Position numbers and translations under genes: made by a program
The notes under the pieces: generated by a model
What the model saw: only the letters and a program-made list of their open reading frames with translations
Database searches by the model: none
Told to the model about the DNA's origin: nothing
From: an uncultured Endomicrobiia bacterium
Lineage (GTDB): Bacteria; Elusimicrobiota; Endomicrobiia; DTEH01
Direction: 5' to 3'
Assembly: GCA_937936785.1 (NCBI GenBank)
Contig: CALDDQ010000004.1
Coordinates: 66,801-130,800, forward strand
DNA: 64,000 nt
In this document: positions 1-32,397 of the stretch, one piece after another
Layout: every line of letters starts with the position of its first letter
Numbering within the stretch: the stretch's first letter is position 1

Positions 1-2
1 GA

Positions 3-305
3 TTGAATACTGATTCTTCAGTTAGACGTTTAAAAGGAAGTTTGCGTCCTATAAATAATCAGATAGATAGAGCAAAAATTTTAGATAGTATTAAATTTGT
101 AGATTATGTAGTTTTGTTTTCTGAGGATACACCATTAAGGGTGATTAAAGAGTTAAAACCGGACATTTTGGTTAAAGGTGGAGATTATAAATTGGACAAA
201 ATTGTTGGTTACGGTATTGTGCCCAAGGTTGTGCGAGTAAAACTTGTTAATGGAAAGTCTACAACAGATTTGATAAAAAAAATTAAGAATTTATATAAAA
301 AATAA
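3..305 (+). CDS. 5'-truncated C-terminal cytidylyltransferase domain of bifunctional heptose kinase/adenylyltransferase (HldE/RfaE domain II-like)
   Basis: The translation 'VDYVVLFSEDTPLRVIKELKPDILVKGGDYKLDKIVGYGIV...STTDLIKKI' matches the recalled C-terminus of HldE/RfaE2 (the ADP-heptose pathway). The ORF runs off the window's 5' end. Confidence 0.6.
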   Translation: MNTDSSVRRLKGSLRPINNQIDRAKILDSIKFVDYVVLFSEDTPLRVIKELKPDILVKGGDYKLDKIVGYGIVPKVVRVKLVNGKSTTDLIKKIKNLYKK

Positions 306-325
306 ACAGTTTATAAATTTAAAAA

Positions 326-721
326 ATGGAAAAACAAATTTTGAGAATAATAGATGCTAATTTTAATCGTGCTATTGAAGGTACACGTGTAGTTGAAGAT
401 ATTTTACGGTTTGTTTATGATGATAAAAAAAGTTATTTGCAATTAAGAAATATTAGACATCATCTGGCAAAAATTTTTAGCAATATGTATGAACAACTTT
501 TAACAACTCGTAACAGTAAAATTGATCCAGGCAGAAAAGTTGAAGAAAGAAAATATAAGAATTTAAGTGATATATTAATTTCTAACCTTCATCGTGTTGA
601 AGAATCATTACGTGTGCTGGAAGAAGTTTGTAAACTTGAATTTGTAGAAAAAGTTTTAAAAATAAAAGTGTTAAGATACAAAATTTATGATATTGAAAAA
701 AGGTTGTTAAAAATTAAATAA
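326..721 (+). CDS. Hypothetical protein, possibly a ThiD2-like thiamine-associated domain protein
   Basis: 131-aa ORF immediately upstream of thiC. The motif 'IDANFNRAIEGTRVVEDILRF' resembles the N-terminal domain seen fused to ThiE in some bacteria. This rests on memory of the family only. Confidence 0.35.
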   Translation: MEKQILRIIDANFNRAIEGTRVVEDILRFVYDDKKSYLQLRNIRHHLAKIFSNMYEQLLTTRNSKIDPGRKVEERKYKNLSDILISNLHRVEESLRVLEEVCKLEFVEKVLKIKVLRYKIYDIEKRLLKIK

Positions 722-822
722 AAATTTTTATTAAGATATTAATTTAAAATAAAATATTGTTAAATAAAAAATTTTAAGAATTAGAATAAGTACTATGTAA
801 TAATATTAAATAAGGAAAAATA

Positions 823-2100
823 ATGACAATAATAGAATATCTAAAACAAAAAATATATCCAAAACATTTAGAAACAATTTGCGGGGAAGAGAAAATTTCT
901 AAAGAAACACTTATAAAAAATATTATTAGTGGTAAGATTGTAGTTTCAAAAAATATTAATTCTAAACGCAAATATATAGCCATAGGAAAAGGGTTAAAAA
1001 CAAAAGTTAATGCAAACATTGGTACCTCACCAGACAGTATGAACTTGAGACAAGAATTAAAAAAGATTGATGCAGCTATAAAAGCCGGGGCTGATGCTGT
1101 TATGGATCTTTCAACAGGAGGAGATTTAGATAAAATAAGAAAAGAAGTTTTAGAATATTCTACAATTGCTGTCGGAACAGTTCCGATTTATCAAGTGATT
1201 TGTGATACAGTGTTTAAACAAAAAGAAATTAAAGATGTTGCAGTTAATGAAATTTTTGAAGTGATAGAAAAACATGCTGAAGACGGGGTAGATTTTATTA
1301 CAGTACATTGTGGTGTAACAAAAAAAAATTTAAAAATTTTGAAAAATAAAAAACGTATTTGTGGAATTGTTAGTCGTGGTGGTTCATTTATGGCGGAGTG
1401 GATTGTAAAAAATAATAAAGAAAATCCATTATATGAAAATTATGAAAGACTTTTAAAAATTGCCAGAAAATACGATGTGACACTAAGTTTAGGTGATGGG
1501 TTACGTCCAGGTGCAATTGTTGATGCGAACGATGAAGCACAGATTGATGAGTTAAAAACACTTGCAGAACTTGCGACAATTGCTAATAGAGAAGGTGTTC
1601 AGGTGATGTTAGAAGGTCCAGGACATATGCCATTGAATGAAATTGAACAACATATAAAATTAGAAAAAAGGATAAGCGATGAAAAACCTTTCTATCTTTT
1701 AGGTCCTCTGGTAACTGATATTGCAGCTGGGTATGATCATATAACTTCTGCAATAGGTGCAGCAATAGCAGCTGCTTCGGGAGCAGATTTTATTTGTTAT
1801 GTTACCCCAGCAGAACATTTACGATTACCGGATGAAAAAGATGTTTATGAAGGGGTAATATCAGCACGAATTGCTGCACATGCAGGTGATATTGTAAAAG
1901 GTGTTCCTGGAGCAAAAGAAATAGATATTGAAATGTCAAAAGCAAGAAAAAAATTAGATTGGAAAAGACAGATTATGTTTGCACTTGATCCAAAGAAAGT
2001 TAAAATAGAACGTAGAAAATTTTTTCCGAAAGAAAAAGATGTTTGTTCAATGTGTGGAACATTTTGTGCAATGAAAGAATCTAGTAAAATTGGAATATAA
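823..2100 (+). CDS. thiC: Phosphomethylpyrimidine synthase ThiC (short clostridial-type form)
   Basis: 425 aa with 'NANIGTSPD', 'GPGHMPL' and the C-terminal 'CSMCGTFCAM' Fe-S motif typical of ThiC. Confidence 0.9.
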   Translation: MTIIEYLKQKIYPKHLETICGEEKISKETLIKNIISGKIVVSKNINSKRKYIAIGKGLKTKVNANIGTSPDSMNLRQELKKIDAAIKAGADAVMDLSTGGDLDKIRKEVLEYSTIAVGTVPIYQVICDTVFKQKEIKDVAVNEIFEVIEKHAEDGVDFITVHCGVTKKNLKILKNKKRICGIVSRGGSFMAEWIVKNNKENPLYENYERLLKIARKYDVTLSLGDGLRPGAIVDANDEAQIDELKTLAELATIANREGVQVMLEGPGHMPLNEIEQHIKLEKRISDEKPFYLLGPLVTDIAAGYDHITSAIGAAIAAASGADFICYVTPAEHLRLPDEKDVYEGVISARIAAHAGDIVKGVPGAKEIDIEMSKARKKLDWKRQIMFALDPKKVKIERRKFFPKEKDVCSMCGTFCAMKESSKIGI

Positions 2101-2139
2101 TTTTATTGTAACTGTTTTTAAATATACAATTAGGTAACT

Positions 2140-3066
2140 ATGAATATAAAAGTTAAAGTTCCTGCAACAACAGCAAATTTTGGTCCTGGGTTTGATTGTT
2201 TAGGTGCAGCGTTAGATTTGTATAATGAATTTGAAGTTAAAAAGTTAAAAAATCAAAAGTTGAGAATTGAAGTTTTTGGTGAAGGAGCAGATGTTATTGC
2301 TAAGAATGAAAAAAATATTGTTTACAAAGCAATAAAAAAAGTTTGTTGTATTTGTGATAAAAGTGTTCCAAATATTAGTATAAAAATTGTAAGTAAAATA
2401 CCGATAGAACGCGGGTTAGGGTCATCAGCATCTGCGATAGTTGCCGGAGTGTTATTGGGAAACATTTTATGTGGAGAAAAGTTAAGTGTGGATGAATTGA
2501 TAAATATTGCAACAGAGTTAGAAGGACATCCTGATAATATAGTTGCAGCTATAAAAGGTGGGTTATGTATAGCAAGAGAGGTTAGGGTAAAAGTTAAGAA
2601 TTCAAAAGTTGTCCAGGTTAAATATATTAAATTAAATATGCCAGATGATTTGTGTGCACTAATTTTTATACCTGAGGTAAAGGTTTTGACCGAAAAGGTA
2701 AGAAGTGTATTGCCTAAAGTAATTAATTATGAGTCAGCAGTAAAAAATCTTGGTAATACAGCGTTGTTGATAGCAAGTATTTTAAATAATAAATATAGTT
2801 TAATAAGTTTTGCAATGGAAGACTATTTACACCAACCTTTTAGAAAAAAAATTATGCCTTGGATGCAAGAAATATTTCAGTTGTGTTTAAATAATAAATC
2901 TTTAGGAGTTGCACTTAGCGGTTCTGGATCAAGTATTTTAGCATTATATAGGAAAGAAGTGTTAAACAAAAATCTTGCTGAAAAAATAAAAAAGTTAATT
3001 GATGAAAAAGTAACAGTAGAATATAAAATTTTAAATTTTGTAAAAAATGGTGCACAGTTGATATAG
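2140..3066 (+). CDS. thrB: Homoserine kinase (GHMP kinase)
   Basis: N-terminus 'VKVPATTANFGPGFDCLGAALDLYN' and the GHMP motif 'PIERGLGSSAS'. Confidence 0.88.
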   Translation: MNIKVKVPATTANFGPGFDCLGAALDLYNEFEVKKLKNQKLRIEVFGEGADVIAKNEKNIVYKAIKKVCCICDKSVPNISIKIVSKIPIERGLGSSASAIVAGVLLGNILCGEKLSVDELINIATELEGHPDNIVAAIKGGLCIAREVRVKVKNSKVVQVKYIKLNMPDDLCALIFIPEVKVLTEKVRSVLPKVINYESAVKNLGNTALLIASILNNKYSLISFAMEDYLHQPFRKKIMPWMQEIFQLCLNNKSLGVALSGSGSSILALYRKEVLNKNLAEKIKKLIDEKVTVEYKILNFVKNGAQLI

Positions 3067-3115
3067 ATTATTTATCTTAAATAGTTTATACAAAATTGAT
3101 TTTTTTGGGGGAAAA

Positions 3116-3853
3116 ATGAAAAAAATAAGTCCTTTAGTGATGAAATTTGGTGGTAGTAGTGTGGCAAATGTGGATAGAATAAAAAATGTAGCAAGTATTA
3201 TTATAGAGCAGAAAAGAGTTTTTAAATATGTTGTTGTGGTAGTATCTGCTCCGGGAGATACTACTGATGATTTAATAGAGAAAGCAAATCAAATCACGCA
3301 AAACCCTGACAAACGTGAACTTGATATGTTACTAGCAACAGGAGAACAAATGTCAATAGCATTACTTTCTATGGCTATTAAAGAAATTGGACATGACTCA
3401 ATATCACTTACAGGTCCACAGGCAGGTATTTATGCAGACGAAATTCATACAAAAGCAAAAATTATTGATATTGATACAAAAAGAATAAAAAAATATTTAA
3501 AACAAGATAAAGTTGTAATAGTTGCAGGATTTCAAGGAATAAATCCAAATGAAGATATAACAACCCTGGGTCGTGGCGGGTCTGATTTAACTGCTATTGC
3601 ATTAGCTGCAAAACTTAAAAGTCCAATATGTGAAATATATACAGATGTAGACGGTGTTTTTACAACAGATCCAAGAGTTGTCCCTGAAGCAAAAAAAATT
3701 GATTATTTAACATATGAAGAAATGCTTGAAATGGCAGGTACCGGCGCACAGGTTATGATGGCAAGATCAATTGAAGTTGCAAAAAAATACAATGTAAAAC
3801 TTGAAATAAAATCTTCACTTACAAGAAAATCAGGAACAATAGTTTATAAATGA
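3116..3853 (+). CDS. Aspartokinase, catalytic amino-acid-kinase domain only (no ACT domains)
   Basis: 245 aa. Has 'VMKFGGSSV', 'VVVSA.GDTTD' and 'GRGGSDLTA', and ends exactly where ACT domains normally begin. Its stop overlaps the start of the next ORF (ATGA). Confidence 0.85.
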   Translation: MKKISPLVMKFGGSSVANVDRIKNVASIIIEQKRVFKYVVVVVSAPGDTTDDLIEKANQITQNPDKRELDMLLATGEQMSIALLSMAIKEIGHDSISLTGPQAGIYADEIHTKAKIIDIDTKRIKKYLKQDKVVIVAGFQGINPNEDITTLGRGGSDLTAIALAAKLKSPICEIYTDVDGVFTTDPRVVPEAKKIDYLTYEEMLEMAGTGAQVMMARSIEVAKKYNVKLEIKSSLTRKSGTIVYK

Positions 3854-5373
3854 TAAAAAGAATTTATTGTTTTGTTTTTGCTATTATTTTATTTTTTATT
3901 TCATTGTCAGAAATAAATCTTACAAATTCAGACATTGGAAGACATATAAAAAACGGTGAAATTATACTAAAAAATTTTTCTGTTCCAAAAACAAATCTGT
4001 ATTCGTATACTTATCCAGATTTTACTTTTTATAATCATCATTGGTTAAGCGGTGTAATTTTTTATCTTGTAAAAATCATTTTAGGATTTAAAGGACTTAC
4101 AATATTTTTTTCTATACTAACATTTTTTACATTTTTGTTTTTTATAAAAGTAGTTGAAAAAGATATAGATTCTTTTTGGCTATTAGCAGTAATATTTTTA
4201 TTAACAGTTGTTTTAATTTGTGTAAGAAAAGAAATAAGACCTGAAATTTTTAGTTATCTATTTTCTTCTATTTACTTTTTTATATTATACAAATTTTTAT
4301 ATGAAGAAAAAAATTTTCTTTATATCTTGCCAATTTTACAGATAATATGGACAAACTTACATATTTATTTTGTTATAGGATTAGTTTTAATATTTTTTAG
4401 TTTAGTAGAACTGTTAAGCAAATATTTAAAAAATAAAAGTGAACTAAAAATAAAAAAACAATTAAAATACTTATCCTTTATTCTTTTTTTAAATATTATA
4501 AGTTGTTTAATAAATCCTTATGGTGTAAAAGGAATTCTTATACCTTTTAACATTTTCAAAAATTATGGATACAAAGTTTTTGAAAATCAATCTGTATGGT
4601 TTATTGATAAAGTTGTAAGAAATTATATACCAAATTTAAATTATAAAATATTACTTGGTATTCTTATTTTAAGTTGGGGGCTAAAAATTAAATATAAAAA
4701 AACTAATTTCGCTATATTTAATTTTTTAATCTTTTTATTTTTTAGTATTTTATCATTATTTGCAATACGTAATTTTGCTATCTTCGCTTATTTCTGTATT
4801 CCTATTTTGATATTAAATCTTAAAGACATAAAAATTATAAAGAATAATTACTTTTTGTTTTTCGTTACAACAATATATTTTTTGTTTTCATATAGGATAA
4901 ATTCTTATATTTGGAACTTTGATATTAACTTAATCGGGTTAAAAAAAGGAAATGAATCTGCAGCAAAATTTTTTTTAGATAACAATTTAGAAGGTCCTAT
5001 TTTGAACAATTATGATATAGGAGGATATCTAATTTATTATCTGTTTCCAAAAGAAAAAGTTTTTGTTGACAACCGTCCTGAAGCATATCCTGAAGAATTT
5101 TTTAAGTCTATATATATACCTATGATGGAAGATGAAACTAAATGGTATGAATTGGAAAAAATTTATAATTTTAATTCTATATTTTTTTACCGGCACGATT
5201 ATACTCCCTTTGGACAACAGTTTTTAATTAATCGTGTATTTGATACTAACTGGGCAGTAGTTTTTGTTGATCAAGATTGTATAATATTATTAAAAAGAAA
5301 CGAAAAAAATAAAAAAATTATAGAAAAATTCGAAATACCTAAGGATATTTTTAAAGTAATAAAAACAAAATGA
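3850..5373 (+). CDS. Polytopic membrane protein of unknown function (possibly a GT-C-fold glycosyltransferase-like protein)
   Basis: 507 aa and very hydrophobic, with many predicted TM helices and a soluble C-terminal domain. Start and stop overlap the flanking genes. Confidence 0.5.
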   Translation: MIKRIYCFVFAIILFFISLSEINLTNSDIGRHIKNGEIILKNFSVPKTNLYSYTYPDFTFYNHHWLSGVIFYLVKIILGFKGLTIFFSILTFFTFLFFIKVVEKDIDSFWLLAVIFLLTVVLICVRKEIRPEIFSYLFSSIYFFILYKFLYEEKNFLYILPILQIIWTNLHIYFVIGLVLIFFSLVELLSKYLKNKSELKIKKQLKYLSFILFLNIISCLINPYGVKGILIPFNIFKNYGYKVFENQSVWFIDKVVRNYIPNLNYKILLGILILSWGLKIKYKKTNFAIFNFLIFLFFSILSLFAIRNFAIFAYFCIPILILNLKDIKIIKNNYFLFFVTTIYFLFSYRINSYIWNFDINLIGLKKGNESAAKFFLDNNLEGPILNNYDIGGYLIYYLFPKEKVFVDNRPEAYPEEFFKSIYIPMMEDETKWYELEKIYNFNSIFFYRHDYTPFGQQFLINRVFDTNWAVVFVDQDCIILLKRNEKNKKIIEKFEIPKDIFKVIKTK

Positions 5374-6923
5374 AAAAAATTTCAATTCTTCAGCTAGTTT
5401 TAATATTCATTATAACATTTATAGTTTATAGTAATGTGATAGATGGAAAATTTTTGTTTGATGATGAACATTTTATATTAAGGAATGTCTACATAACTGA
5501 TTGGAAATATATAAAAAATATTTTTTTCTCAAATGTTACTTCAGGAGCAGGATTAAAAGATAATTTTTATCGTCCTTTGTCTACTTTTATGTGGTTAGTA
5601 ATAAATAAAATCTTTGGTTTAAATAACAAAGTTTTTCATATCGCAAATATACTGTGTCATATAACAAATACTATAATAATATATTTGATCATATTCAAAA
5701 TGTTCAACATTAAAACAATATCAATCTTTGCAAGTTTATTTTTTTCTCTGCATCCTGTTAATACAGAAGCTGTATGTTATATTTCAGGTTTAGCAGATCC
5801 GTTATCGTTTATTTTTGTACTTTTATGTATTTATCTTTATATTTTATTAAGAGAAAAAAATGATGTTATAAAAATTTTTATTTTTGTAGCCAGCAATATT
5901 TTAGCAATTTTATCAAAAGAACGTAGTGTTGTTTTACCGGCTTTGTTAATAATAACAGAAATTTATTTTTCTATAAAAGAAAAAACAACATTTTTATATT
6001 TATTAAAAAGAAAAACTTATCTTATAACGACCTACATCATTTCATCTTTATTAAGTATCTTGTGGTTTATATCAAGAATAACAATATTTAATTTCCAAAA
6101 TACATTTAATTTTTTCAAATTACCAAATGTTTATAGCCAGAATTTGTCTGTAAGAATTTTTACATTTTTAAATGCTTTTAAAGAATATTTGAAATTAATA
6201 GTAAAACCATATCCTTTGTATATAGAACGAACAATACCTGTGTTTTTAAATTTTTTTAACTCTCAAGTAATATTAGGATTTTCTTTAATAATAGGATTTA
6301 TGATTTTAAGTATTGTAAAACTAAAAAAATATCCTGAAATTTTTTTTGCTTTTAGTTGGTTTTTAATATGCCTTTTACCAACTTCAGGAATAATACCTAT
6401 CAACTCATTATTTATGGAACACTGGTTATATTTTTCAATGTTTGGGATTTGTGTTTTTGTATCTTTATTGTTAAAAAATTATAGCTGGTTAAAGATTTTT
6501 ATATTTTTCATATTAATAATTTTTGGTATACTTACATATAAACAAACTCTTATTTGGCTTGAACCATATACATTTTTTAGACATATACTTAAATATAACC
6601 CTAACTCAGTTGCTGCAAACAACAATTTTGCAATGGCAGCAGCTGAAAAAGGAGAACTTGAAACTGCAATTTTTCATTACAAAAAAGCAATATCCTTAGA
6701 TGACACTTTTCCACAACCACATCATAATCTTGCAAGAATATATATCTTGATAGGAGAAATTAACAATGCCATTGAAGAATACAATAAAGCTTTAAAAATA
6801 GATCCTGATTTTATATATTCTCATTTAGATCTGTTTAATATATACACTCAACTTAAACAAAAAGACAAAGCAGATTTTCATAAGATAAAAATAGAACAAA
6901 TATCAAAAAAGATTTATGAATAA
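5370..6923 (+). CDS. TMTC/PMT-like membrane glycosyltransferase (GT-C) with C-terminal TPR repeats
   Basis: N-terminal 'FLFDDEHFILRN' matches the F-x-F-D-D motif of the TMTC/DUF1736 family. The protein is multi-TM, and the C-terminal region contains TPR repeats ('AIFHYKKAISLDDTF...EYNKALKIDPDF'). Confidence 0.6.
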   Translation: MKKISILQLVLIFIITFIVYSNVIDGKFLFDDEHFILRNVYITDWKYIKNIFFSNVTSGAGLKDNFYRPLSTFMWLVINKIFGLNNKVFHIANILCHITNTIIIYLIIFKMFNIKTISIFASLFFSLHPVNTEAVCYISGLADPLSFIFVLLCIYLYILLREKNDVIKIFIFVASNILAILSKERSVVLPALLIITEIYFSIKEKTTFLYLLKRKTYLITTYIISSLLSILWFISRITIFNFQNTFNFFKLPNVYSQNLSVRIFTFLNAFKEYLKLIVKPYPLYIERTIPVFLNFFNSQVILGFSLIIGFMILSIVKLKKYPEIFFAFSWFLICLLPTSGIIPINSLFMEHWLYFSMFGICVFVSLLLKNYSWLKIFIFFILIIFGILTYKQTLIWLEPYTFFRHILKYNPNSVAANNNFAMAAAEKGELETAIFHYKKAISLDDTFPQPHHNLARIYILIGEINNAIEEYNKALKIDPDFIYSHLDLFNIYTQLKQKDKADFHKIKIEQISKKIYE

Positions 6924-7464
6924 AAAAAGTTCTGTTTTATTACACATTTGTTGTGGGATATGTTCAATTGGTAGTATACAAAATTTGCAAGAGGAAGGAT
7001 TTGATGTATACGGATTTTATTTCAATCCAAATATTTATCCTAAAGAAGAATATTTGAAACGGTTAGAAGTATTGAAAAAGTTAAAGTCTATTTTTAAAAT
7101 AAATTTAATTGAACAAGGTTATAATTATGAAGAATGGAAAAATTTTTGTACATCGTCAGTAGATTATGAAAAAGAGTATGAAGGTGGCAAACGGTGTATG
7201 TTATGTTATGGGTTTAGGTTAAAGAAGACATACTTTAAAATGCAAGAATTAAATTTAAGTTTTTTTACAACTACACTAACAATCAGTCCATATAAAGATA
7301 GTAAAAAAATTTTTGAAATTGGTAAAAAAATCGGTGGCGAAAGATTTTTAGATATAGATTTTAAGAAAAGAAATGGATTTAAAAAAAGTGTAGATATTTC
7401 AAAAAAGTATAATTTTTATAGACAAAATTATTGTGGTTGTGAATTTAGTATGATTAGAAAATAA
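6916..7464 (+). CDS. queH: Epoxyqueuosine reductase QueH (DUF208)
   Basis: 'LLHICCGICS', 'GFYFNPNIYP', 'GKRCMLCYGFRL', 'FTTTLTISPYKD' and 'YRQNYCGCEFS' match QueH signatures. Confidence 0.8.
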   Translation: MNKKSSVLLHICCGICSIGSIQNLQEEGFDVYGFYFNPNIYPKEEYLKRLEVLKKLKSIFKINLIEQGYNYEEWKNFCTSSVDYEKEYEGGKRCMLCYGFRLKKTYFKMQELNLSFFTTTLTISPYKDSKKIFEIGKKIGGERFLDIDFKKRNGFKKSVDISKKYNFYRQNYCGCEFSMIRK

Positions 7465-7471
7465 ATTTTTT

Positions 7472-8437
7472 ATGGAATTTATAAAAAGGTATTATTCATT
7501 TAATGATTATTTAAGAGAAAAATTTGGTGAGCGGGTACATAGAATAAGTATTGATGCAGGTTTTAGTTGTCCAAATCTTGATGGAAGTTTGAGCAAAGAT
7601 GGATGTATTTATTGCAACAATAAAGCGTTTAGTATGCACTTAAGAAGAAACAGTGATGATAACTTATATAATGAAACTGGCAGGATAGAAGGTATAAAAG
7701 AACAGATAAAAAGCTCAATAAAATTTTATAAAGGAAAGTACAAAATAAAAAAGTTTGTTGCTTATTTTCAGAGTTTTTCTAACACATATGCAGATATAAA
7801 CACACTAAAAAAAACTTATGATGTAATTAAAGAATTTCCAGAATTTGTTGGTTTATTTATCTCTACAAGGCCAGATTGTGTTGATGAAGAAAAGTTAGAT
7901 TTGATAGAAAGTTATAAAAAATATGATAATATCAAAACTGTTTGGATAGAGTATGGATTACAAACTACAGATAACAAAATATTAAAATCTATAAATCGTG
8001 GGCATACATATGAAGATTTTTTAGAAGCGTTAAAATTAACTAAAAGGTGTAATATTAAAGTTGGAGTGCATTTAATTTTAGGTTTACCGGGACAATGTTA
8101 TAAAGATATTATGTCTGATGCGGTTAAAATTGCAAAGTTACCTATTGATGGAATAAAATTTCATGTTTTGCATATATTAAGAAATACATTGTTGGAAAAA
8201 ATATATTATGAAAAAAAAATTAAAATTTTTTCTGATAAAGAATATGTTTCAACAGTGTGTGATTTTATAGAAAGAATTCCCAAAAATTTTGTAATATTGA
8301 GATTAATTTCAAATTCAAAAAAAGAATATTTAATTTCTCCTCAGTGGATTAATAAGAAAAATGAAATTATAACAGAGATTAAACAAGAATTAGAACGAAG
8401 AGATACGTTTCAAGGTAAATTTTTAAGTAAAGATTAA
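7472..8437 (+). CDS. Radical SAM protein, TIGR01212 (YhcC-like) family
   Basis: 'VHRISIDAGFSCPNLDGSLSKDGCIYCNN' is the characteristic N-terminal Cys motif of the TIGR01212 family. Confidence 0.8.
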   Translation: MEFIKRYYSFNDYLREKFGERVHRISIDAGFSCPNLDGSLSKDGCIYCNNKAFSMHLRRNSDDNLYNETGRIEGIKEQIKSSIKFYKGKYKIKKFVAYFQSFSNTYADINTLKKTYDVIKEFPEFVGLFISTRPDCVDEEKLDLIESYKKYDNIKTVWIEYGLQTTDNKILKSINRGHTYEDFLEALKLTKRCNIKVGVHLILGLPGQCYKDIMSDAVKIAKLPIDGIKFHVLHILRNTLLEKIYYEKKIKIFSDKEYVSTVCDFIERIPKNFVILRLISNSKKEYLISPQWINKKNEIITEIKQELERRDTFQGKFLSKD

Positions 8438-8532
8438 CTTTGTAATTTTACATTTTAAACTTGACCTTAGATTAAAAAAATTGTAATTCAAAAAGCTAAA
8501 AGGTTAGAAATTTTTATATCAGGGGTATAACT

Positions 8533-9030
8533 ATGGTTAAAAGAATTCAAAAGAAAAAAATGGAAGAACCTGTCGTTACTGCAGTAACATTTGATAAAAA
8601 TCAGGTGAAGATGTCAATTTTAGATGTTCCAGACAAACCAGGTGTTGCAGCATATATCTTCGGAGAGTTAGCAAGAGAAAATATTAATGTAGATATGATT
8701 ATTCAATCAGCAGCAAGAGAAGAAACAAACGATATTTCTTTTACAATTTCAAAAACAGATTTAGATAAAGCAAAAGAAGTTATGTCAAAAGCAGTTAAAG
8801 AGTTAAAATCAGATGGATTGATTTTTTCTGACAATGTATGTAAAGTTTCAATTGTAGGTGTTGGTATGAAAAGTCATCCAGGTGTTGCTTATAAAATGTT
8901 TAAGACGTTGTCTGACAATGGCATAAATATAGAGATGATTTCTACTTCTGAAATAAAGATATCTTGCATAATAAAAAAAGAACAGTTAGAATTAGCAGTG
9001 AAATCCTTACACAAAGAATTTATCGGGTAA
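8533..9030 (+). CDS. Aspartokinase regulatory subunit (tandem ACT domains; beta-subunit-like)
   Basis: 165 aa. 'EEPVVTAVTFDKNQVKMSILDVPDKPGVAAYIFGELARENINVDMIIQ' is the canonical start of the aspartokinase ACT region. The ORF has its own RBS (AGGGG) and an ATG start. Confidence 0.85.
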   Translation: MVKRIQKKKMEEPVVTAVTFDKNQVKMSILDVPDKPGVAAYIFGELARENINVDMIIQSAAREETNDISFTISKTDLDKAKEVMSKAVKELKSDGLIFSDNVCKVSIVGVGMKSHPGVAYKMFKTLSDNGINIEMISTSEIKISCIIKKEQLELAVKSLHKEFIG

Positions 9031-9047
9031 GTTCTAAAAACTTAAAT

Positions 9048-11126
9048 TTAGAATCCAGTATTACTTTCTTCTATATCGGGAGTATTTTCCATCGGAACAT
9101 CATAAAATTCTGGTGAATATTGTGTTGGTTCAGTACCTTGAATAAAAGTTTCTACATATACACGTTTTGAACTGGAAGAAGGCAAAAGTCCAGTGTTTTT
9201 ATCAATAGTAACTTCAACAATTGTTGTTGGTTTATCAAAATCTTTATTAGGCAAATCTTTTGTTGCAAGTTTCATAAATTCTGTCCAAATAGGACAAGAA
9301 ATTCTACCGCCAGTAGCATCTTTACCTAAAGATTTTTTTGTATCAAATCCAACCCAAACACCGCAGGTAATGTCTGGGGTATATCCTATAAACCATGTGT
9401 CAGTATTATCATTGGTAGTGCCAGTTTTTCCAGCACAAATTTTTTTCAGATTTTTTGCATATTGTCCAGTGCCATTTTGGACTACACCTTTAAGTAACGA
9501 GGTAATAATATAGGCACTTTCGTGCGAAATTACTATGTTTTCAACAGGTTTATATTCTTCAAGTATATTTCCAAACTTATCTCTGATTTCAATTATACCA
9601 TAAGGAGTTGTTTTTATCCCATTATTTGCAAGTACATTATATGCAGAAGTTAGTTCTAAAAGGTATACTTCAGAAGCACCAAGAGCTAAAGAAAATGTGT
9701 TTGTAAGAGGAGTTTTGATTCCAAGTTTTCTTGCATATTCTATTACGTTTGTAGGTCCTACTTCCATTATTAGTCTGATAGAACAGGAGTTTAATGATAG
9801 TTCTAATGCTTGTCTTAATAAAACTTTTCCATAGTATTTATTTTTATAATTTTCTGGTTGCCAGATATTTTTAGGATCTGTTGGAAGTTGCTTTTTAGGA
9901 AAGTTTTCAACTGGAATTTCGGCAAAGTTTGTTGTAGTTGCAACTAATCTCCAATCAATACCGTCATTGACAAAAAATAGTGGAGTATCTTCTATTATTG
10001 AAGCTGGTGTAAAACCATGTTCTATGGCTGCTAAATATACAATAGGTTTAAATGAAGAACCGGGTTGTCTTAAAGCTTGTGTTGAACGGTTAAACTGTGA
10101 TTTTCTAAAATCTTTTCCTCCGACCATTGCAAGTATTCCACCAGTTTTAGTATCCAAAGCAACTAATGCTCCCTGGACATCTATAGTAGATTTTACCACA
10201 TTAGAAAGTTGTGATATTTGTGCAACTAAAATTTCTTCTGCATAACGTTGCATTTTAAAATCAAGAGTTGTTTTTATAACAAGTCCACCTTGATATAAAA
10301 CCTCATCAGGGTAACGAGGTTCAAGTTGTTCTTTTAGGTATTCAATAAAATAAGGTGCTGTCGCAGAAGATGTTGGGAAAGTTACAATTTCAATATCTTC
10401 TTTTATAGCCGAATTATATTCTTCTTGTGAAATAAATTTTAATTCCAGCATTCGTTTTAGTACAACATTTCTTCTCTTAATTGCGCGATTATAGTTTCTT
10501 ATAGGAGAATAATAATTTGGTGATCGCAACATTCCAGCTAACAAAGCAGATTCTGCAATTGTTAGATCTGATACATTTTTAGAAAAAAATATTTTTGAAG
10601 CTTGTCCCATTCCATAAGCTCCATGCCCGAGATAAATTTGATTCAAATACATCTCCAAAATTTCATTTTTAGAAAAGTTGTATTCAAGTTTTAATGCTAG
10701 TGCTAATTCTTTTAATTTACGTGTGATAGTTTTTCTTTGGGACAAAAAAGCGGTTCGTGCAAGTTGTTGTGTTATAGTAGATCCGCCAGCTGCAAACCTT
10801 ACTTTGATAAAATTGTCTATGAAAGCTTTTAGTATACGTTTGAAATTTATACCCCAATGTTTATAAAAGTTATGATCTTCAATTGCTAAGACAGCATTTT
10901 TTAAACTATCAGGGAATTCTTGATAAGTTGTCCAGGTTCGTTTTTCAGTAAAAAGTTCAGTAATAAGTAGTCCATTTCTATCCAGTATTTTTGTAGATAA
11001 AACAGGAGTATAATTTTGTAGTTCATCTCCTGAAGGTAAATTTTTGTATAAATTAAAAAAGTAATATATTCCCAACACAAACAACAAAAATAATGTTGCG
11101 GCGATATAGCTTAGATATTTTTTCAT
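9048..11126 (-). CDS. mrcA: Penicillin-binding protein 1A (bifunctional transglycosylase/transpeptidase)
   Basis: Signal-anchor at the N-terminus, GT51 motifs ('EDHNFYKHWGI', 'GGSTITQQLAR') and a transpeptidase 'SSFKP' motif. Confidence 0.9.
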   Translation of the reverse strand: MKKYLSYIAATLFLLFVLGIYYFFNLYKNLPSGDELQNYTPVLSTKILDRNGLLITELFTEKRTWTTYQEFPDSLKNAVLAIEDHNFYKHWGINFKRILKAFIDNFIKVRFAAGGSTITQQLARTAFLSQRKTITRKLKELALALKLEYNFSKNEILEMYLNQIYLGHGAYGMGQASKIFFSKNVSDLTIAESALLAGMLRSPNYYSPIRNYNRAIKRRNVVLKRMLELKFISQEEYNSAIKEDIEIVTFPTSSATAPYFIEYLKEQLEPRYPDEVLYQGGLVIKTTLDFKMQRYAEEILVAQISQLSNVVKSTIDVQGALVALDTKTGGILAMVGGKDFRKSQFNRSTQALRQPGSSFKPIVYLAAIEHGFTPASIIEDTPLFFVNDGIDWRLVATTTNFAEIPVENFPKKQLPTDPKNIWQPENYKNKYYGKVLLRQALELSLNSCSIRLIMEVGPTNVIEYARKLGIKTPLTNTFSLALGASEVYLLELTSAYNVLANNGIKTTPYGIIEIRDKFGNILEEYKPVENIVISHESAYIITSLLKGVVQNGTGQYAKNLKKICAGKTGTTNDNTDTWFIGYTPDITCGVWVGFDTKKSLGKDATGGRISCPIWTEFMKLATKDLPNKDFDKPTTIVEVTIDKNTGLLPSSSSKRVYVETFIQGTEPTQYSPEFYDVPMENTPDIEESNTGF

Positions 11127-11283
11127 AAGTAAGACACATAATACAAAAAAAAGTTTTATTAAGCAAGGATAGCAACTTTAAATGTTTAAGATTTTAAATT
11201 TGAGTTTTAAAAAATTGATTTTTAGATAATAAATTTGTATTTTACAAAAATACGCTCATGATAATTTTCGGAGGTTTTTAATA

Positions 11284-11976
11284 ATGAAATTTAATTTACC
11301 GATATCTTTTTTTAAGAAAGGTGGAAAAATTACTATAGGACAAAAAACTATCCAAACAGTTACTACGCAAAAACAATCAATCCTGCATCCTGAAATATCA
11401 AAACAAACAGAGACAGAATTAAACCTCAACACAGTAGATGCTTTAATAAAATCTCTTTCAGAGAGAGATCCATTTGTTAGAGCAATTGGGTGTGAAGTTT
11501 TAGGCAAAATGCGAGAAAAAAAAGCGTTAAAACAAATAATGATGTTATTAAAAGACCCATCTAAATATGTAAGAGAGAAAGCAGCGATAGCTTTAGGACA
11601 GATAGGAGATAAAAGAGCAGTTCCTATATTGGTTGAAGTATTAGAAAAAGATGATGCAGAGGAAGTTAGAGTAACAATTGCAGGTGTTTTGGGACATTTA
11701 AGAGATAGAGAAGCAGTTCCTGTTTTGATAAAAACTTTGGAAGATCCTTCACCTACTGCAAGAATGAAATCTGCAATATCGTTGGGATTAATAGGAGATG
11801 TTAATGCTATTACACCGTTATATAAAGTTTTAAAAGACCCACATGAGTTAGTCAGAAAATATGCTTGTGAAGCTTTAGGTAACATAGGTCGTGCAGCAAT
11901 ACCAGCATTACTTATGGCATTAAAAGATGAGAATGTTAGATCTCATGCAGCTCAGGTATTGATAAAGATTAAATAA
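11284..11976 (+). CDS. HEAT / PBS-lyase-like repeat protein
   Basis: Repeated 'VR..A..ALG.IGD..AVP.L...L.D' units. The true start may lie downstream of 11284. Confidence 0.65.
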   Translation: MKFNLPISFFKKGGKITIGQKTIQTVTTQKQSILHPEISKQTETELNLNTVDALIKSLSERDPFVRAIGCEVLGKMREKKALKQIMMLLKDPSKYVREKAAIALGQIGDKRAVPILVEVLEKDDAEEVRVTIAGVLGHLRDREAVPVLIKTLEDPSPTARMKSAISLGLIGDVNAITPLYKVLKDPHELVRKYACEALGNIGRAAIPALLMALKDENVRSHAAQVLIKIK

Positions 11977-26401: not shown

Positions 26402-26807
26402 TAATATGAATAAAAAAGTGATAGATTTTATAGAAAACATAAAATATGACGATAAAGGATTGGTGCCAGTAGTTGCACAGGATTATAATGATAATACAGT
26501 TTTAATGGTTGCTTTTATGAACAAGGAAGCTTTAATAAAAACTTTTGAAACTTTTAAGGTTCATTATTATAGCCGTTCACGAGGAAAATTATGGTTAAAA
26601 GGAGAAACTTCTGGCAATGTTCAGATTGTGAAAGAAATATATTTTGATTGTGATAAAGATTGTTTATTGGTAAAAATTGAACAAGTGGGTATTGCGAGTT
26701 GTCATACAGGACATAGAAGTTGTTTTTACAGAACCATATCTAAAGATGGAGAAATTTCTATAGTTGCAGAAAAAGTTTTTAATCCAGAAGATGTTTATAA
26801 AAAATAA
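26388..26807 (+). CDS. hisI: Phosphoribosyl-AMP cyclohydrolase (monofunctional HisI; no HisE domain)
   Basis: 'YYSRSRGKLWLKGETSGN' and 'DCDKDCLLVKIEQ...CHTG..SCF' motifs. The protein is only 139 aa. Confidence 0.85.
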   Translation: MRKNNNMNKKVIDFIENIKYDDKGLVPVVAQDYNDNTVLMVAFMNKEALIKTFETFKVHYYSRSRGKLWLKGETSGNVQIVKEIYFDCDKDCLLVKIEQVGIASCHTGHRSCFYRTISKDGEISIVAEKVFNPEDVYKK

Positions 26808-26811
26808 TAAA

Positions 26812-28299
26812 ATGTTAAATTTAAGTATAGAAGAAGTAAAAAAAATTGTAAAAAAATATTTACATAAAAAATGTGATGTAGTTGTGCCTTTATATAAAGA
26901 GATTTTAGTCGACACAGAAACGCCTGTATCTTTATTTTTAAAACTTGCTGTTGATGAAGAATACGCTTATTTATTAGAAAGTGCACAGACAAGTCTGCAT
27001 TGGGGACGGTATTCTTTTATATCATTTTCTCCAGCAAAACTTATTAAAATAGATAGTATAAGGGAATCTATTTTGCCAAGATTGAGACAAGAATTAAATA
27101 AATATTATGTTCCACAAGAGTTGGTAAAAAATTTGCCAAGATTTTTTGGCGGATTTGTTGGATATTTAAGTTATGAATTAGTTCACGAAATAGAACCAAA
27201 AGTTAAACGCCCGAAGAAAACATATTTGTGTTCATTTCCTGAGATTTTTTTTATGTTCAATTCTGTTACAATAATATTTGACCACTTTTTAAATAAGTTA
27301 AAAATAGTAAATTTAGTTATATCGGATAAAATTGAAAATATTGATGAGTTATATAGATTTTCGGAAGAAAAAATTGATCTTTTGATAAACAAAGTGTTTC
27401 AAAAAAAGTTAAATGAAAAAAGTTTGAAGTATAAAAAAAGTAACGAAAAAAATTTAATTAAAGAATATTATTCTAACATATCAAGAAAAAATTTTATTAA
27501 AAAAATAAAAAAGGCAATAGAATACATTAAAAAAGGAGATGTTATACAAACTGTAATTTCACGAAAATTAATGAAAAAAACTTCTGCAGATACTTTTGAC
27601 ATTTACAGAAGTTTAAGAATTATAAATCCATCCCCATATATGTTTTATCTCAAATTTAGTGATATGTGTTTAATAGGTTCTTCTCCTGAAATTCTTATAA
27701 GGAAAGAAGGAAATATTGTTGAAACAAAGCCTATTGCAGGTACAAGACCAAGAAGTGCAGATGAGATAAAAGATAAAAATTATGAAAAGGAACTAATAAA
27801 TTCTGAGAAAGAAAATGCAGAACATATAATGTTAGTAGATTTAGCAAGGAACGATCTGGGCAAAATTTCGGAGTATAAAACAATTTTTTTGCCTGAACTA
27901 AAAGTTATAGAACGATTTTCACATGTTATGCATATAGTGACTTCAGTTAAAGGTGTTTTGAGAAAAAAATATGATAGTATAGATGTATTATCAGCAGCGT
28001 TTCCTGCTGGTACTGTTAGTGGTGCGCCAAAGGTTCGTGCTATGCAGATAATTTCGCAGTTGGAAGAATATGTTAGAGGACCATATGCTGGTGCAGTTGG
28101 ATATTTTAGTTTAACAGGTAATATGGATATGGCGATTACAATAAGAACAATTGTTTATAAAGATAAAAAAGTTTTTATACAATCAGGGGCAGGAATAGTT
28201 GCAGATTCTATTCCTGAAAAAGAATATGATGAAACATTAAACAAAGCAAAAGCTCTAATGATCGCAATAAAAATGGCTGAAGTAAAAATTAAGGAATAA
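26812..28299 (+). CDS. trpE: Anthranilate synthase component I
   Basis: Chorismate-binding motifs 'SRKL', 'GSSPE' and 'IAGTRPR', and the 'GAVGYF' region. The ATG at 26812 follows the hisI stop and is preferred over the overlapping ORF start at 26764. Confidence 0.88.
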   Translation: MLNLSIEEVKKIVKKYLHKKCDVVVPLYKEILVDTETPVSLFLKLAVDEEYAYLLESAQTSLHWGRYSFISFSPAKLIKIDSIRESILPRLRQELNKYYVPQELVKNLPRFFGGFVGYLSYELVHEIEPKVKRPKKTYLCSFPEIFFMFNSVTIIFDHFLNKLKIVNLVISDKIENIDELYRFSEEKIDLLINKVFQKKLNEKSLKYKKSNEKNLIKEYYSNISRKNFIKKIKKAIEYIKKGDVIQTVISRKLMKKTSADTFDIYRSLRIINPSPYMFYLKFSDMCLIGSSPEILIRKEGNIVETKPIAGTRPRSADEIKDKNYEKELINSEKENAEHIMLVDLARNDLGKISEYKTIFLPELKVIERFSHVMHIVTSVKGVLRKKYDSIDVLSAAFPAGTVSGAPKVRAMQIISQLEEYVRGPYAGAVGYFSLTGNMDMAITIRTIVYKDKKVFIQSGAGIVADSIPEKEYDETLNKAKALMIAIKMAEVKIKE

Positions 28300-28301
28300 A
28301 A

Positions 28302-28907
28302 ATGATACTAATAATAGACAACTATGATTCTTTTACTTACAATCTTGTACAGTATTTAGGAGAATTATGTATTGAAAACGAAAGTGTTTCTCAACCAATA
28401 AAGGTTTATCGTAATGATAAAATAACTATATCAAAAATTAAAAGTTTACGACCAAAGTATATTATAATTTCGCCTGGTCCGTGTACTCCAAAGGAAGCTG
28501 GTGTTTCAGTCAAGGTGATAAAAACTTTTGCAACTAAAATACCTATTTTAGGTGTATGTTTAGGTCATGAATGTGTAGTGGAAGCATTTGGAGGTAAAAT
28601 TATTAAATCAAAGGAAATTTTTCATGGCAAAGTTTCAGAAATATTTCATGATAAAAAAACAATTTATAGTGGATTACCAAATCCTATTAAAGCTACAAGA
28701 TATCATTCATTGATTGCAGAAAAAAAAACTTTGCCAGATTGTTTAGAGATAACTTCGTGGACTAAAAATGGTATAATAATGGGAGTGCGACTTAAAAATA
28801 GTGATTTAAAGAAGTTTTGTGTTGAAGGAGTGCAGTTTCATCCAGAATCGATAATGACACCGGAAGGTAAAAAGTTGTTACTAAATTTCTTGATTTTAGG
28901 CAAGTAG
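28302..28907 (+). CDS. trpG: Anthranilate synthase component II (glutamine amidotransferase)
   Basis: 'ILIIDNYDSFTYNL', 'ILGVCLGHE' and 'VQFHPES' motifs. Confidence 0.9.
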   Translation: MILIIDNYDSFTYNLVQYLGELCIENESVSQPIKVYRNDKITISKIKSLRPKYIIISPGPCTPKEAGVSVKVIKTFATKIPILGVCLGHECVVEAFGGKIIKSKEIFHGKVSEIFHDKKTIYSGLPNPIKATRYHSLIAEKKTLPDCLEITSWTKNGIIMGVRLKNSDLKKFCVEGVQFHPESIMTPEGKKLLLNFLILGK

Positions 28908-28915
28908 AAAAAATT

Positions 28916-29851
28916 ATGGAAAAAAGAAAAGTTGTGGTTATAGACGATGCTGAATCAGTAGCTATTGCTATTCAATATTTATTAGAAACTATGGGTTATG
29001 AAGTTTATGTTGAAAACGATGGTGAAGCGGGTATAAAAAAAGTTTTTGAAGTAAGACCTGATTTGGTAATTTTAGACATAAACATGCCAAAAATGACTGG
29101 ATACGAAGTTGTTGATATAATGAGAAAGGAAGTTTCTACTATGAACACACCGATATTAATGATGTCTGGTTCTACAGATGAGATGGACGAGATTAAAGGG
29201 TTAGAATTAGGTGTAGATGGGTATATTACTAAACCGTTTAATAACGAACTATTTATTGCAAAACTTAAAGCTATATTGATGAGAGCACAACAAAATATTT
29301 CTGTAAACCCACTTACAATGCTTCCTGGTAATATTGCTATTAATAAAGAAATCGAACATAGAATTTTGTCAAAAACAAAATTTGCTGTAATATATACTGA
29401 TTTAAACAATTTTAAAAGTTTCAATGATTATTACGGTTTTGCACGTGGTGATGAAGTTATTAAACATACGGCTAATATTTTGGTTAACGCAATAAAAACA
29501 AAAGGTCACTATAGTGATTTTGTAGGACACATTGGTGGAGATGATTTTGTGGTAGTTTGTATGGTGGACAATGTGGAAAACATTTGTGAGACAATAATTA
29601 AAGATTTTGATAGTTCAATAATAAATTTTTACAATGAGGAAGAAAAAGTTAAGGGTTATATTGAAACTTACAATAGACAGGGAGAACTTAAAAAGTTTGG
29701 TATAATTTCAATAAGTTTATCAGTAGTAACAAATGTTAAACGCGAGATTAAACATATAGGTGAAATTTCTGAGATAAGTGCTGAATTAAAAAGTTATGTA
29801 AAACAATTTGGGAAAAGCAAGTATGTAATTGATAGAAGAGCGGGGACATAA
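28916..29851 (+). CDS. Response regulator with N-terminal REC and a C-terminal GGDEF-like domain carrying a GGDDF variant motif
   Basis: REC motifs 'VVVIDDAESV', 'DLVILDINMP' and 'DGYITKPF'. GGDEF-domain start 'NPLTMLPGN', and 'HYSDFVGHIGGDDFVVV' in place of RxxD...GG(D/E)EF. Confidence 0.85.
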   Translation: MEKRKVVVIDDAESVAIAIQYLLETMGYEVYVENDGEAGIKKVFEVRPDLVILDINMPKMTGYEVVDIMRKEVSTMNTPILMMSGSTDEMDEIKGLELGVDGYITKPFNNELFIAKLKAILMRAQQNISVNPLTMLPGNIAINKEIEHRILSKTKFAVIYTDLNNFKSFNDYYGFARGDEVIKHTANILVNAIKTKGHYSDFVGHIGGDDFVVVCMVDNVENICETIIKDFDSSIINFYNEEEKVKGYIETYNRQGELKKFGIISISLSVVTNVKREIKHIGEISEISAELKSYVKQFGKSKYVIDRRAGT

Positions 29852-29876
29852 TTTTTTATAAAAACAGGGTGAAAAT

Positions 29877-30914
29877 ATGATTAAAGATATGATACAGAAA
29901 ATTGTTAATAGAGAAAATTTATCTGAAAAGGATATGATAGAAGTTATGACAGAAATAATGTCAGGCCAGGCAACAGAATCGCAAATAGCATCGTTTATAA
30001 CTGCTTTAAGAATGAAAGGAGAAACTGTGGAAGAAATTACTGGTGCAGCAAAAGTTATGAAACAGTTTGCTACTCGTGTAGAAATTAAAAAACGAGTTTT
30101 AACAAATGTTAATTATGAAACAATTTTAGACACTTGTGGTACCGGCGGTGATTCAACTAAAACGTTTAACATTTCTACAGCGACTGCTTTTGTAGTATCA
30201 TCTTGTGATGTTTTAGTGGCGAAACATGGTAATAGGTCGGTATCTTCCTTATGTGGTTCTGCAGATGTCGTAGAACAACTCGGTATTAAGTTGGAGATAA
30301 CGAAAGATAAAGCAGAAAAATGTTTGTCAGAATTAGGAATAGTATTTTTATTTGCTCCGATTTGGCATAGTGCAATGAAATATGCGCTTGGTCCACGAAA
30401 ACAAATAGGTATTAGAACAATTTTTAACATTATAGGACCACTTACAAATCCTGCAGGTGCAAATGCACAAGTTTTAGGTGTTTATTCAAAAACTCTTTTA
30501 AAACCGATTGCTGAAGTATTAAAAAATTTAGGTTCTAAACATTCGTTTGTTGTTCATAGTGAAGATATGATGGACGAAATAAGTATTACTGGAAAAACTC
30601 ATATAGCAGAGTTAAAAAATGGTAGTATTTCGTTTTATGACATTGTCCCGGAGCAATTTGGTATAAAAAAATGTTCTATTGACGATTTGAAAGGTGCTGA
30701 TGCTAAAGAAAATGCAGAGATTATTTTAAGAATAGTTTCTGGTAAAGAGAATGGTCCAAAAATGGATGTTGTAATTTTAAATTCAGCATTTGCATTGGTT
30801 GCAGCAGGAAAGGTAAAAAGTATTGAGGAAGGTATAGTTTTAGCAAGAGATGTTATTAACAGAGGTTTGGTAATAGAAAAAATTAATATGTTAAAAGAAT
30901 ATACAAATGAATAA
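29877..30914 (+). CDS. trpD: Anthranilate phosphoribosyltransferase
   Basis: 'ILDTCGTGGDSTKTFNIST' and 'VAKHGNRSVSS' motifs. Confidence 0.9.
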   Translation: MIKDMIQKIVNRENLSEKDMIEVMTEIMSGQATESQIASFITALRMKGETVEEITGAAKVMKQFATRVEIKKRVLTNVNYETILDTCGTGGDSTKTFNISTATAFVVSSCDVLVAKHGNRSVSSLCGSADVVEQLGIKLEITKDKAEKCLSELGIVFLFAPIWHSAMKYALGPRKQIGIRTIFNIIGPLTNPAGANAQVLGVYSKTLLKPIAEVLKNLGSKHSFVVHSEDMMDEISITGKTHIAELKNGSISFYDIVPEQFGIKKCSIDDLKGADAKENAEIILRIVSGKENGPKMDVVILNSAFALVAAGKVKSIEEGIVLARDVINRGLVIEKINMLKEYTNE

Positions 30915-31698: not shown

Positions 31699-31701
31699 TT
31701 T

Positions 31702-32394: not shown

Positions 32395-32397
32395 GGT

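Follow-up and report, generated by a model that had tools for sequence, protein, structure and literature searches.

Why should a bacterium encode the catalytic and the regulatory parts of its aspartokinase (AK) in two genes with four co-oriented genes between them? AK catalyses the first step of lysine, threonine and methionine synthesis; it is a classic example of an allosteric enzyme and one of the main targets in strain engineering. Here, we followed up this arrangement in a stretch of 64,000 nucleotides from an uncultured Endomicrobiia bacterium (contig CALDDQ010000004.1 of assembly GCA_937936785.1; hereafter the window), in which an open reading frame (ORF) for a kinase domain and an ORF for two ACT domains lie 4.7 kb apart (Table 1). 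Our analyses indicate that the two ORFs are the halves of one lysC, and that they probably result from an ancient fission of an α2β2-type lysC that extends through a whole clade, is maintained by selection and leaves a two-subunit enzyme whose ACT subunit would act in trans.

Two open reading frames encode the halves of a single aspartokinase

The kinase ORF matches the Pfam family AA_kinase end to end (E 2e-49) and passes the aspartate kinase cut-offs of both NF005155 (349.2 bits versus 346) and TIGR00657 (300.4 versus 208.7), and it keeps the invariant family motifs KFGGSS, TLGRGGSD and YTDVDGV. Its AlphaFold2 (AF2) model displayed a complete amino-acid-kinase fold (predicted local distance difference test score, pLDDT, 90) that superposes on solved AK catalytic domains, best on 5yei_A with a template modelling (TM) score of 0.84. 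Judging by these features, the 245-aa protein should catalyse aspartate phosphorylation. The tandem ACT region is absent from this polypeptide, which stops at position 241 of the 407 positions of NF005155; the ORF ends in GTIVYK and a stop codon, two to three residues beyond the end of the catalytic domain, and its residue 243 aligned with residue 241 of the α subunit of Corynebacterium glutamicum LysC.

The ACT ORF carries two ACT domains, each of the families ACT_9, ACT_7 and ACT matching in two stretches (144, 88 and 74 bits, with a cut-off of 27 each; PF01842, PF22468 and PF13840). It matches AK β subunits with E values of 1e-44 to 1e-67, and AK regulatory regions remain its closest relatives next to a weak match to ACT_AHAS_ss (PF22629, E 2e-7). 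It is thus a β-type ACT1-ACT2 protein starting at the kinase/ACT linker, with its Met10 aligned with residue 1 of the β subunits of C. glutamicum (2dtj_A) and Pseudomonas aeruginosa (5yei_D). The equivalents of D274, A279, Q298, N374, I375, S381 and E382 of C. glutamicum AK are conserved in the alignment; of these, A279, Q298, I375, S381 and E382 are listed as sites whose mutants were assayed for changes in feedback inhibition (PMC10464499).

On the NF005155 model, the kinase ORF covers positions 4-241 and the ACT ORF positions 240-401. Since these matches abut, the two ORFs are colinear halves of one lysC from which nothing is missing. An earlier sequence-only reading of this DNA had proposed such end-to-start continuity for the same two ORFs, and the alignment to the full-length model confirms it. 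The same reading had placed the end of the kinase ORF at the kinase/ACT boundary, which is the α/β boundary of the Corynebacterium-type internal start, and the structure alignments agree.

The split is clade-wide and both halves are maintained

A search for homologues of the kinase ORF, which covered 5.8 billion proteins, returned 16 best clusters (74-100% identity), all of them kinase-only and about 245 aa long (237-265). Among the matches listed at 70% identity or below, all were full-length Elusimicrobiota AKs of about 374-430 aa except P0020, a 302-aa fragment. The ACT ORF, in turn, retrieved 28 ACT-only clusters (165-172 aa, 69-100% identity), which are called "ACT domain-containing protein [Endomicrobiia bacterium]" where the source names them. 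Database entries thus name one half "aspartate kinase" and the other "ACT domain-containing protein", with nothing to connect the two, which hides the tie of the ACT half to lysine and threonine biosynthesis. In a neighbour-joining tree, the kinase-only sequences formed one clade within Endomicrobiia, and the clade received 100% bootstrap support for the four genomes in which both halves are known. Every kinase-only ORF of this clade stops two to three codons past the motif GTI(V/I), with a stop codon (TGA, TAA or TAG) that varies by lineage.

The sequence-only reading had named a misjoin or sequencing error as what could undo the finding. The halves were found in assemblies from NCBI, JGI, ENA and Logan that stem from different samples, the Logan re-assemblies reproduced the NCBI loci, and the stop codons differ between lineages; an assembly or sequencing artefact, whether a misjoin or a frameshift, is consequently so improbable as to be negligible. 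The JGI contig L014 illustrates how a split caused by artefact or decay appears: lysC lies in overlapping pieces there and many of its neighbours are fragmented as well. On this contig lysC, accC, leuA, T2SSE and others are each broken into several ORFs, as in a frameshift-rich assembly or a pseudogenising genome.

This contig, with the P0020 fragment, shows that a truly fragmented lysC with broken neighbours exists, and it lends the idea of pseudogenisation (lysC broken by an insertion, its fragments now decaying) what support it has. Against it, every clade member keeps the two ORFs intact, amino-acid identity is 72-91% despite saturated synonymous sites, and catalytic motifs and ribosome-binding sites are kept. 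Pairwise ratios of nonsynonymous to synonymous substitution rates (dN/dS) ranged from 0.05 to 0.18 in the kinase half and from 0.10 to 0.25 in the ACT half; dS was about 1 or saturated, and the pair from a genome with unlinked halves is included in these ranges. Such ratios indicate that both halves are under purifying selection, and decay is strongly disfavoured and very improbable. The ACT half shares 61.5% identity with the ACT regions of fused AKs, which share 62.1% among themselves, and so it has not been accelerated after the split. Clade-specific changes at positions conserved in the fused enzymes number three in the kinase half and one in the ACT half. The suggestion of an ancient gene fission, raised earlier as one of two options, therefore stands, since the split is common to the whole clade and selection maintains both halves.

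The fused ancestor carried an internal translation start at the linker

The nearest full-length relatives are found in L011 (70% identity) and in L012/L013, a metagenome-assembled genome of Endomicrobiales. Their gene order is accB-accC-SIS-CTP_transf-ThiD2-(thiE)-thiC-thrB-lysC, followed by leuA/cimA-ilvD-ilvB. Because the order upstream of lysC in L011 and L012 matches that of the window, the split gene and the fused lysC are orthologous by position; ThiD2-thiC-thrB is a conserved left-hand synteny anchor in split (L008, L009) and unsplit (L011, L012) relatives alike. The earlier observation that the halves lie downstream of thiC-thrB was correct, and the comparison with related loci that it called for finds lysC intact behind the same upstream genes. 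These loci show that the ancestral lysC sat in a thiC-thrB-lysC cluster.

At the position of the β start, Met is invariant in 12 of 12 aligned full-length Elusimicrobiota AKs, and in L011 and L012 it is preceded, in frame and 6-8 nt upstream, by GGGGAGG or GGAGG. A scan of GTDB genomes with the kinase ORF yielded 81 diverse lysC loci, all distant and full-length and none from the clade, the back-translated patterns being too conserved. A start codon lies at most two codons from the β-start site in 75 of the 81, and a Shine-Dalgarno (SD)-like 4-mer precedes the site in 87% of those 75 (control in-frame positions, 17%) and a strong 5-mer in 67% (background, 3.8%). The ancestral lysC is thereby shown to have carried an internal SD and ATG at the kinase/ACT linker, yielding a free ACT-ACT β subunit. 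The near-universal internal SD and start in this class of lysC further suggest that the α2β2 organisation extends far beyond the handful of enzymes characterised so far. In the GTDB loci (L015-L094) the internal SD is often AAGGAGG, which is read as Lys-Glu-Glu/Val in the linker.

In the window, this ancestral start survives as a relic within the ACT ORF. The sequence-only reading had let the ACT protein begin there, at MEEP, but the start probably lies nine codons upstream, at 8533. The ORF opens with a 9-aa basic leader (MVKRIQKKK-MEEP...), and ACT ORFs throughout the clade start 6-12 codons upstream of the old β start with Lys/Arg-rich leaders (MVKRIQKKK-, MKKKKIIKK-, MFKKNLKNKKRK-), a feature of all 28 ACT-only clade proteins (P0121-P0148). 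In 22 of these 28 the old β-start Met has become Ile; six, the window's among them, have kept it. To judge by the alignments, this leader probably descends from the basic linker found in fused enzymes. An AGGGG motif precedes the upstream ATG, and relatives carry GGAG or GGAGG in the same place, so that the ACT ORF does have a ribosome-binding site of its own, as had been claimed. Since the SD now precedes the upstream ATG and the ATG at 8560 lacks one, the MEEPVV... start is an ancestral relic and not likely the present start. A TTGACC hexamer offered as the -35 element of a separate ACT promoter fared less well, with no acceptable -10 element at 16-18 nt and a promoter scan at chance level (79 matches versus 74.5 expected, uninformative in AT-rich DNA).

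A stop codon probably came before the intervening genes

The genes between the halves differ from relative to relative. Behind thrB, the order is kinase-queH-ACT in L008 and kinase-queH-mnmL-ACT in L009, and in the window kinase-[GT-C-like]-[PMT_2-TPR]-queH-mnmL-ACT, where the bracketed genes encode two membrane proteins; in all three the ACT gene is followed by a penicillin-binding protein (PBP) gene on the minus strand. L095, which is basal in the tree, has thrB-kinase-queH, two unknown genes, an SSF transporter gene and mnmL, where the contig ends. In L096, L001 and L003-L005 the kinase gene stands in the order RadC-...-kinase-queH-aroD, and the ACT gene is absent within 10 kb. L105 has RadC-kinase followed by a different, 547-aa membrane protein; this locus came from a metagenome DNA pattern search with the kinase 3' end, in which two of eight matches were real and one of them (L105) new. 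Across the clade, the ACT gene lies 0.6 to 30 kb from the kinase gene. The largest distance is seen in GCA_017880035.1, where one 1.1-Mb contig carries the halves about 30 kb apart on opposite strands, the kinase gene at 304,295-305,032 (-) and the ACT gene at 273,809-274,321 (+), the latter still adjoining the PBP gene. A convergent PBP gene follows the ACT gene wherever the ACT gene was seen (L006-L009; Transgly and Transpeptidase domains, 64-76% identity).

Two other lineages show a split with the halves side by side. In L097-L099 (7251-8522; source-labelled Candidatus Aerophobetes), the junction reads "...GTLVN(stop) IIKIKEGE-M...", with an SD and ATG, and asd follows; in L108-L110 (5046-6329; GCA_964622465.1), it reads "...GTIVSG(stop)G(stop)K-MAKIRK...LVEEPVV...", and leuA/cimA-ilvD-ilvB-ilvN-ilvC follow, a downstream context of the ancestral Elusimicrobiota type. 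Each was found in several samples. Like the clade, both encode a kinase-only protein (241-244 aa) and an ACT-only protein (173-179 aa) cut at the same linker; unlike it, they have the two genes next to each other in one frame, with one (TAA) or two (TAA..TAG) in-frame stops and 9-24 nt between them. The same fission has therefore occurred in at least three lineages. A placement of L108 as sister to the clade, which would make one shared fission of the two, received 1% bootstrap support despite a shared EEPVVTAVT motif. A library search with the ACT protein also returned many ACT-only representatives of 155-190 aa, among which fragments are indistinguishable from true splits without genomic context, so that further lineages with the fission may be hidden there.

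As L097-L099 and L108-L110 show, a single nonsense mutation upstream of an existing β start suffices for a viable split. Because this one-stop route is viable elsewhere, a stop codon first and insertions later is the most economical history, and we infer by analogy that the clade followed it, with genes entering the intergenic spacer afterwards. Starting from the pre-existing internal translation start in lysC, a stop codon would have arisen upstream of it, making kinase and ACT adjacent separate genes; unrelated genes would then have accumulated in the gap (queH in nearly all members, mnmL in some, the two membrane-protein genes in the window), and the halves would finally have been unlinked, a rearrangement in one sublineage putting kinase-queH about 30 kb away on the other strand. 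The related loci would thus document a gene-fission pathway stage by stage, from internal start to physical unlinking, and suggest that a gene containing another in the same frame ("gene-in-gene" overlap) can thereby be predisposed to splitting.

The alternative is that queH, or the four genes as a cassette, split lysC directly by inserting precisely at the α/β junction. The position of queH speaks for this: of nine clade loci examined, eight, with the window among them, have it 3' of the kinase gene (directly so in L001-L005, L008, L009, L095 and L096), it alone separates the halves in L008, the simplest locus, and we came across no clade member whose halves adjoin. However, L008 has queH only and L009 queH and mnmL, which demonstrates that the four genes do not form a single unit, and the cassette of the sequence-only reading must be given up. 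L105 has a different gene 3' of the kinase gene (queH was not seen there on a contig that reaches about 1.9 kb beyond the kinase gene), and two other lineages reached the split via in-frame stops alone. Direct insertion is, moreover, the less parsimonious route, as it would have to hit a precise site, keep both halves complete and bring in a stop as well as a start; we regard it as a possible but doubtful origin.

A two-subunit enzyme with a trans-acting ACT subunit is the probable outcome

If the fission left a working enzyme, the 245-aa protein would be its catalytic subunit, and the 165-aa protein would form ACT dimers, as the isolated β subunits of known enzymes do. Threonine and/or lysine would bind to these dimers, which would dock on the catalytic subunit through non-covalent contacts and so bring about feedback inhibition. 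Isolated β subunits of Corynebacterium, Thermus, Mycobacterium and Neisseria reportedly form effector-binding dimers. Structures of such subunits crystallised alone are available from all four (2DTJ, 2DT9, 3S1T and 2RE1).

Characterised α2β2 AKs (C. glutamicum LysC, 3AAW/2DTJ; P. aeruginosa, 5YEI) belong to the same family (44-52% kinase identity; ACT part E 1e-37 to 1e-41) and likewise have a free ACT1-ACT2 polypeptide, whose N-terminus lies at the linker position of Met10. There, β is made from an in-frame internal start within the α gene and α keeps its ACT domains, whereas the clade enzyme has a catalytic chain without ACT domains, a non-overlapping ACT gene and an old internal Met that is mostly Ile. 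Acetohydroxyacid synthase (AHAS) offers a likely shared principle, a catalytic subunit controlled by a separately encoded ACT-domain protein: the catalytic subunit IlvB lacks a regulatory domain, the ACT small subunit IlvN binds the end-product amino acid, and ilvB and ilvN are normally adjacent. AHAS differs in its unrelated catalytic fold and pathway, and the split in the clade is recent enough for fused orthologues to persist in sister lineages. The paired AK-like subunits of Pyrococcus (TIGR02078, AspKin_pair) are an AK-related family annotated as a possible subunit pair, but they are paralogues of about 330 aa and not a kinase/ACT split. The kinase ORF was rejected as a member of that family (108 bits versus a cut-off of 242). 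Our literature search turned up nothing on split aspartokinases or on the aspartokinases of Endomicrobia. The parts and the boundary between them are those of a well-known enzyme class; what is new is their complete separation, the catalytic chain without ACT domains, and the interleaved or unlinked genes.

Several points weigh against a two-subunit enzyme born of fission. The association of the two proteins and the action of the ACT protein on the kinase in trans are things we infer, by analogy throughout, and the order of events likewise draws on analogy with other lineages. To our knowledge, every aspartokinase characterised so far has ACT domains on the catalytic chain itself. In the α2β2 enzymes, the β subunit binds via the ACT domains of α (PMC4142519), and since the kinase ORF has no ACT domain, the known docking surface for β is missing from the clade's catalytic chain. 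Stoichiometric co-expression is not built in either, because several genomes carry the two genes unlinked, on opposite strands. The kinase half is somewhat more diverged, with 66% identity to fused relatives that share 72% among themselves. A second full-length aspartokinase may also exist elsewhere in these genomes; the search covered the 64-kb window, where tblastn found no second AK or ACT copy.

With that docking surface missing, appreciable weight stays with the possibility that the two halves have gone separate ways, although we consider it unlikely. The kinase-only protein would then be an unregulated, feedback-insensitive AK, and the ACT protein would have been kept for another role, as a sensor for a different enzyme or as a free ligand-binding protein. 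The 30-kb separation on opposite strands in GCA_017880035.1, the loci without a nearby ACT gene (L003-L005 and L096) and the slightly faster divergence of the kinase half are all compatible with such uncoupling. Yet the ACT half shows neither acceleration nor altered constraint, retains the AK-type effector-site residues and is still most similar to AK regulatory regions, and the deeper-branching arrangements keep both genes in one co-oriented cluster. We therefore continue to favour a two-subunit enzyme with a trans-acting ACT subunit. A bolder extension, to which we assign a rather low probability, is that the free ACT protein would serve as a diffusible, titratable allosteric subunit, so that feedback sensitivity would be set by the expression ratio of two genes open to independent regulation, and the Thr/Lys-sensing dimer may have gained other targets where the genes are unlinked; a stand-alone ACT regulator would then have been born from an enzyme's own regulatory domain. 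In any case, halves that are kept separately, and are sometimes unlinked, constitute a natural test of whether ACT-mediated feedback can operate without a covalent link, and through which interface.

Neighbouring genes and other features of the window

The four co-oriented genes between the halves, with their overlapping start and stop codons (ATGA junctions), were present as the sequence-only reading described. ATGA overlaps lie at 3850-3853 and 5370-5373. Further on, two genes share 8 nt at 6916-6923, the next two are 7 nt apart, and 95 nt separate the last of the four from the ACT gene. From thiC to the ACT gene, all genes are co-oriented with gaps of at most 95 nt, and the terminator scan found no terminator-like site on the plus strand between 3116 and 9030. 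Co-transcription from thiC to the ACT gene is thus plausible in the window, judging by gene order and spacing. The earlier statement that the halves share an operon is plausible to this extent, but it does not hold in general, as the halves are unlinked in other relatives. The genes asd, hom and thrC and the dap genes are lacking from the 64-kb window.

Table 1. Features at the split lysC locus of the window (positions within the 64,000-nt stretch).
Feature	Coordinates	Strand	Remark
CTP_transf-like ORF	3-305	+	co-oriented run
ThiD2	326-721	+	co-oriented run
thiC	823-2100	+	co-oriented run
thrB (homoserine kinase)	2140-3066	+	TIGR00191, 256 bits versus cut-off 168
AK catalytic subunit, kinase domain only, 245 aa	3116-3853	+	AA_kinase, NF005155
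507-aa polytopic membrane protein, predicted GT-C fold	3850-5373	+	AF2/Foldseek; no Pfam family
Putative PMT_2 (GT-C family) glycosyltransferase with C-terminal TPR repeats	5370-6923	+	PF13231, 29.2 bits versus 26.1
queH (epoxyqueuosine reductase)	6916-7464	+	PF02677, E 1e-56
mnmL/ytqA-type radical SAM tRNA-modification gene	7472-8437	+	TIGR01212, 328.9 bits versus 180
Shine-Dalgarno-like AGGGG	8521-8525	+	7 nt 5' of the ATG at 8533
AK regulatory subunit, basic leader and ACT1-ACT2, 165 aa	8533-9030	+	
Relic of ancestral internal β-subunit start codon (Met10)	8560-8562	+	no SD before it
Class A penicillin-binding protein, convergent	9048-11126	-	right-hand synteny anchor of the ACT gene

The two membrane-protein genes were seen between the halves only in the window. 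The 507-aa gene was absent at the corresponding position in L008, L009, L001 and L096, the PMT_2-TPR gene was absent from the relatives' loci, and the two putative GT-C glycosyltransferase genes are lineage-specific insertions. Their proteins are mutually dissimilar by BLASTP. In the PMT_2 protein, TPR families were matched besides PMT_2. The 507-aa protein had no Pfam or NCBIfam match, and its AF2 model (pLDDT 92) is predicted to adopt a GT-C glycosyltransferase-like fold, with DPY19, STT3/PglB, ALG12 and AftA as the best Foldseek hits; at E values of 5e-7 to 9e-4, TM scores of 0.5-0.57 and about 10% identity, the likeness is one of fold only. Its family comprises more than 1,900 homologues of about 510 aa at about 45% identity, with 50 invariant residues including an NHHW motif; it is found in Endomicrobiia, Elusimicrobia and Patescibacteria and appears uncharacterised.

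QueH matches PF02677 over residues 1-173 of 175 (192 bits versus 23.5). mnmL lies between queH and the ACT gene in L009 and, in part, in L095, and is absent in L008. queH and mnmL/ytqA are both genes for tRNA wobble-position modification, standing side by side between the aspartokinase halves, and queH accompanies the kinase gene even where the pair has been translocated (RadC-kinase-queH-aroD).

Upstream, thiE lies between ThiD2 and thiC in L008 and L012; in the window it is instead found at 46404-47057 with thiG-thiH-thiF (cluster 43873-47057). No riboswitch, whether for thiamine pyrophosphate (TPP) or lysine, was detected by Rfam in 1-9200 even at E<=1, and this includes the region 5' of thiC, where no TPP riboswitch was seen.

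Elsewhere in the window, trpE, trpG, trpD, trpC and trpF occupy 26764-33213, with a response-regulator-GGDEF gene (28916-29851) between trpG and trpD. This trp operon is followed by a FecR-domain gene and not by trpB/trpA, and a TrpB-like gene (TrpB2-type, PRK12391) stands separately at 37479-38864. The region 33459-43450 contains a cluster of allH, an fdrA-like gene and allG (oxamate carbamoyltransferase type), after which come the TrpB-like gene and genes for a ferritin-like protein, formate-tetrahydrofolate ligase, FTCD_C, a cation-efflux protein and folD. A lone acetyl-CoA synthase delta-subunit-like gene is located at 48552-49499. A HEAT-repeat protein gene lies at 11284-11976 (+); the 209-aa antisense ORF that fully overlaps it, at 11256-11885 (-), is most likely spurious. 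The only Rfam match in the window is a tmRNA gene at 63250-63644, with the tag peptide ANTNFAFAA.

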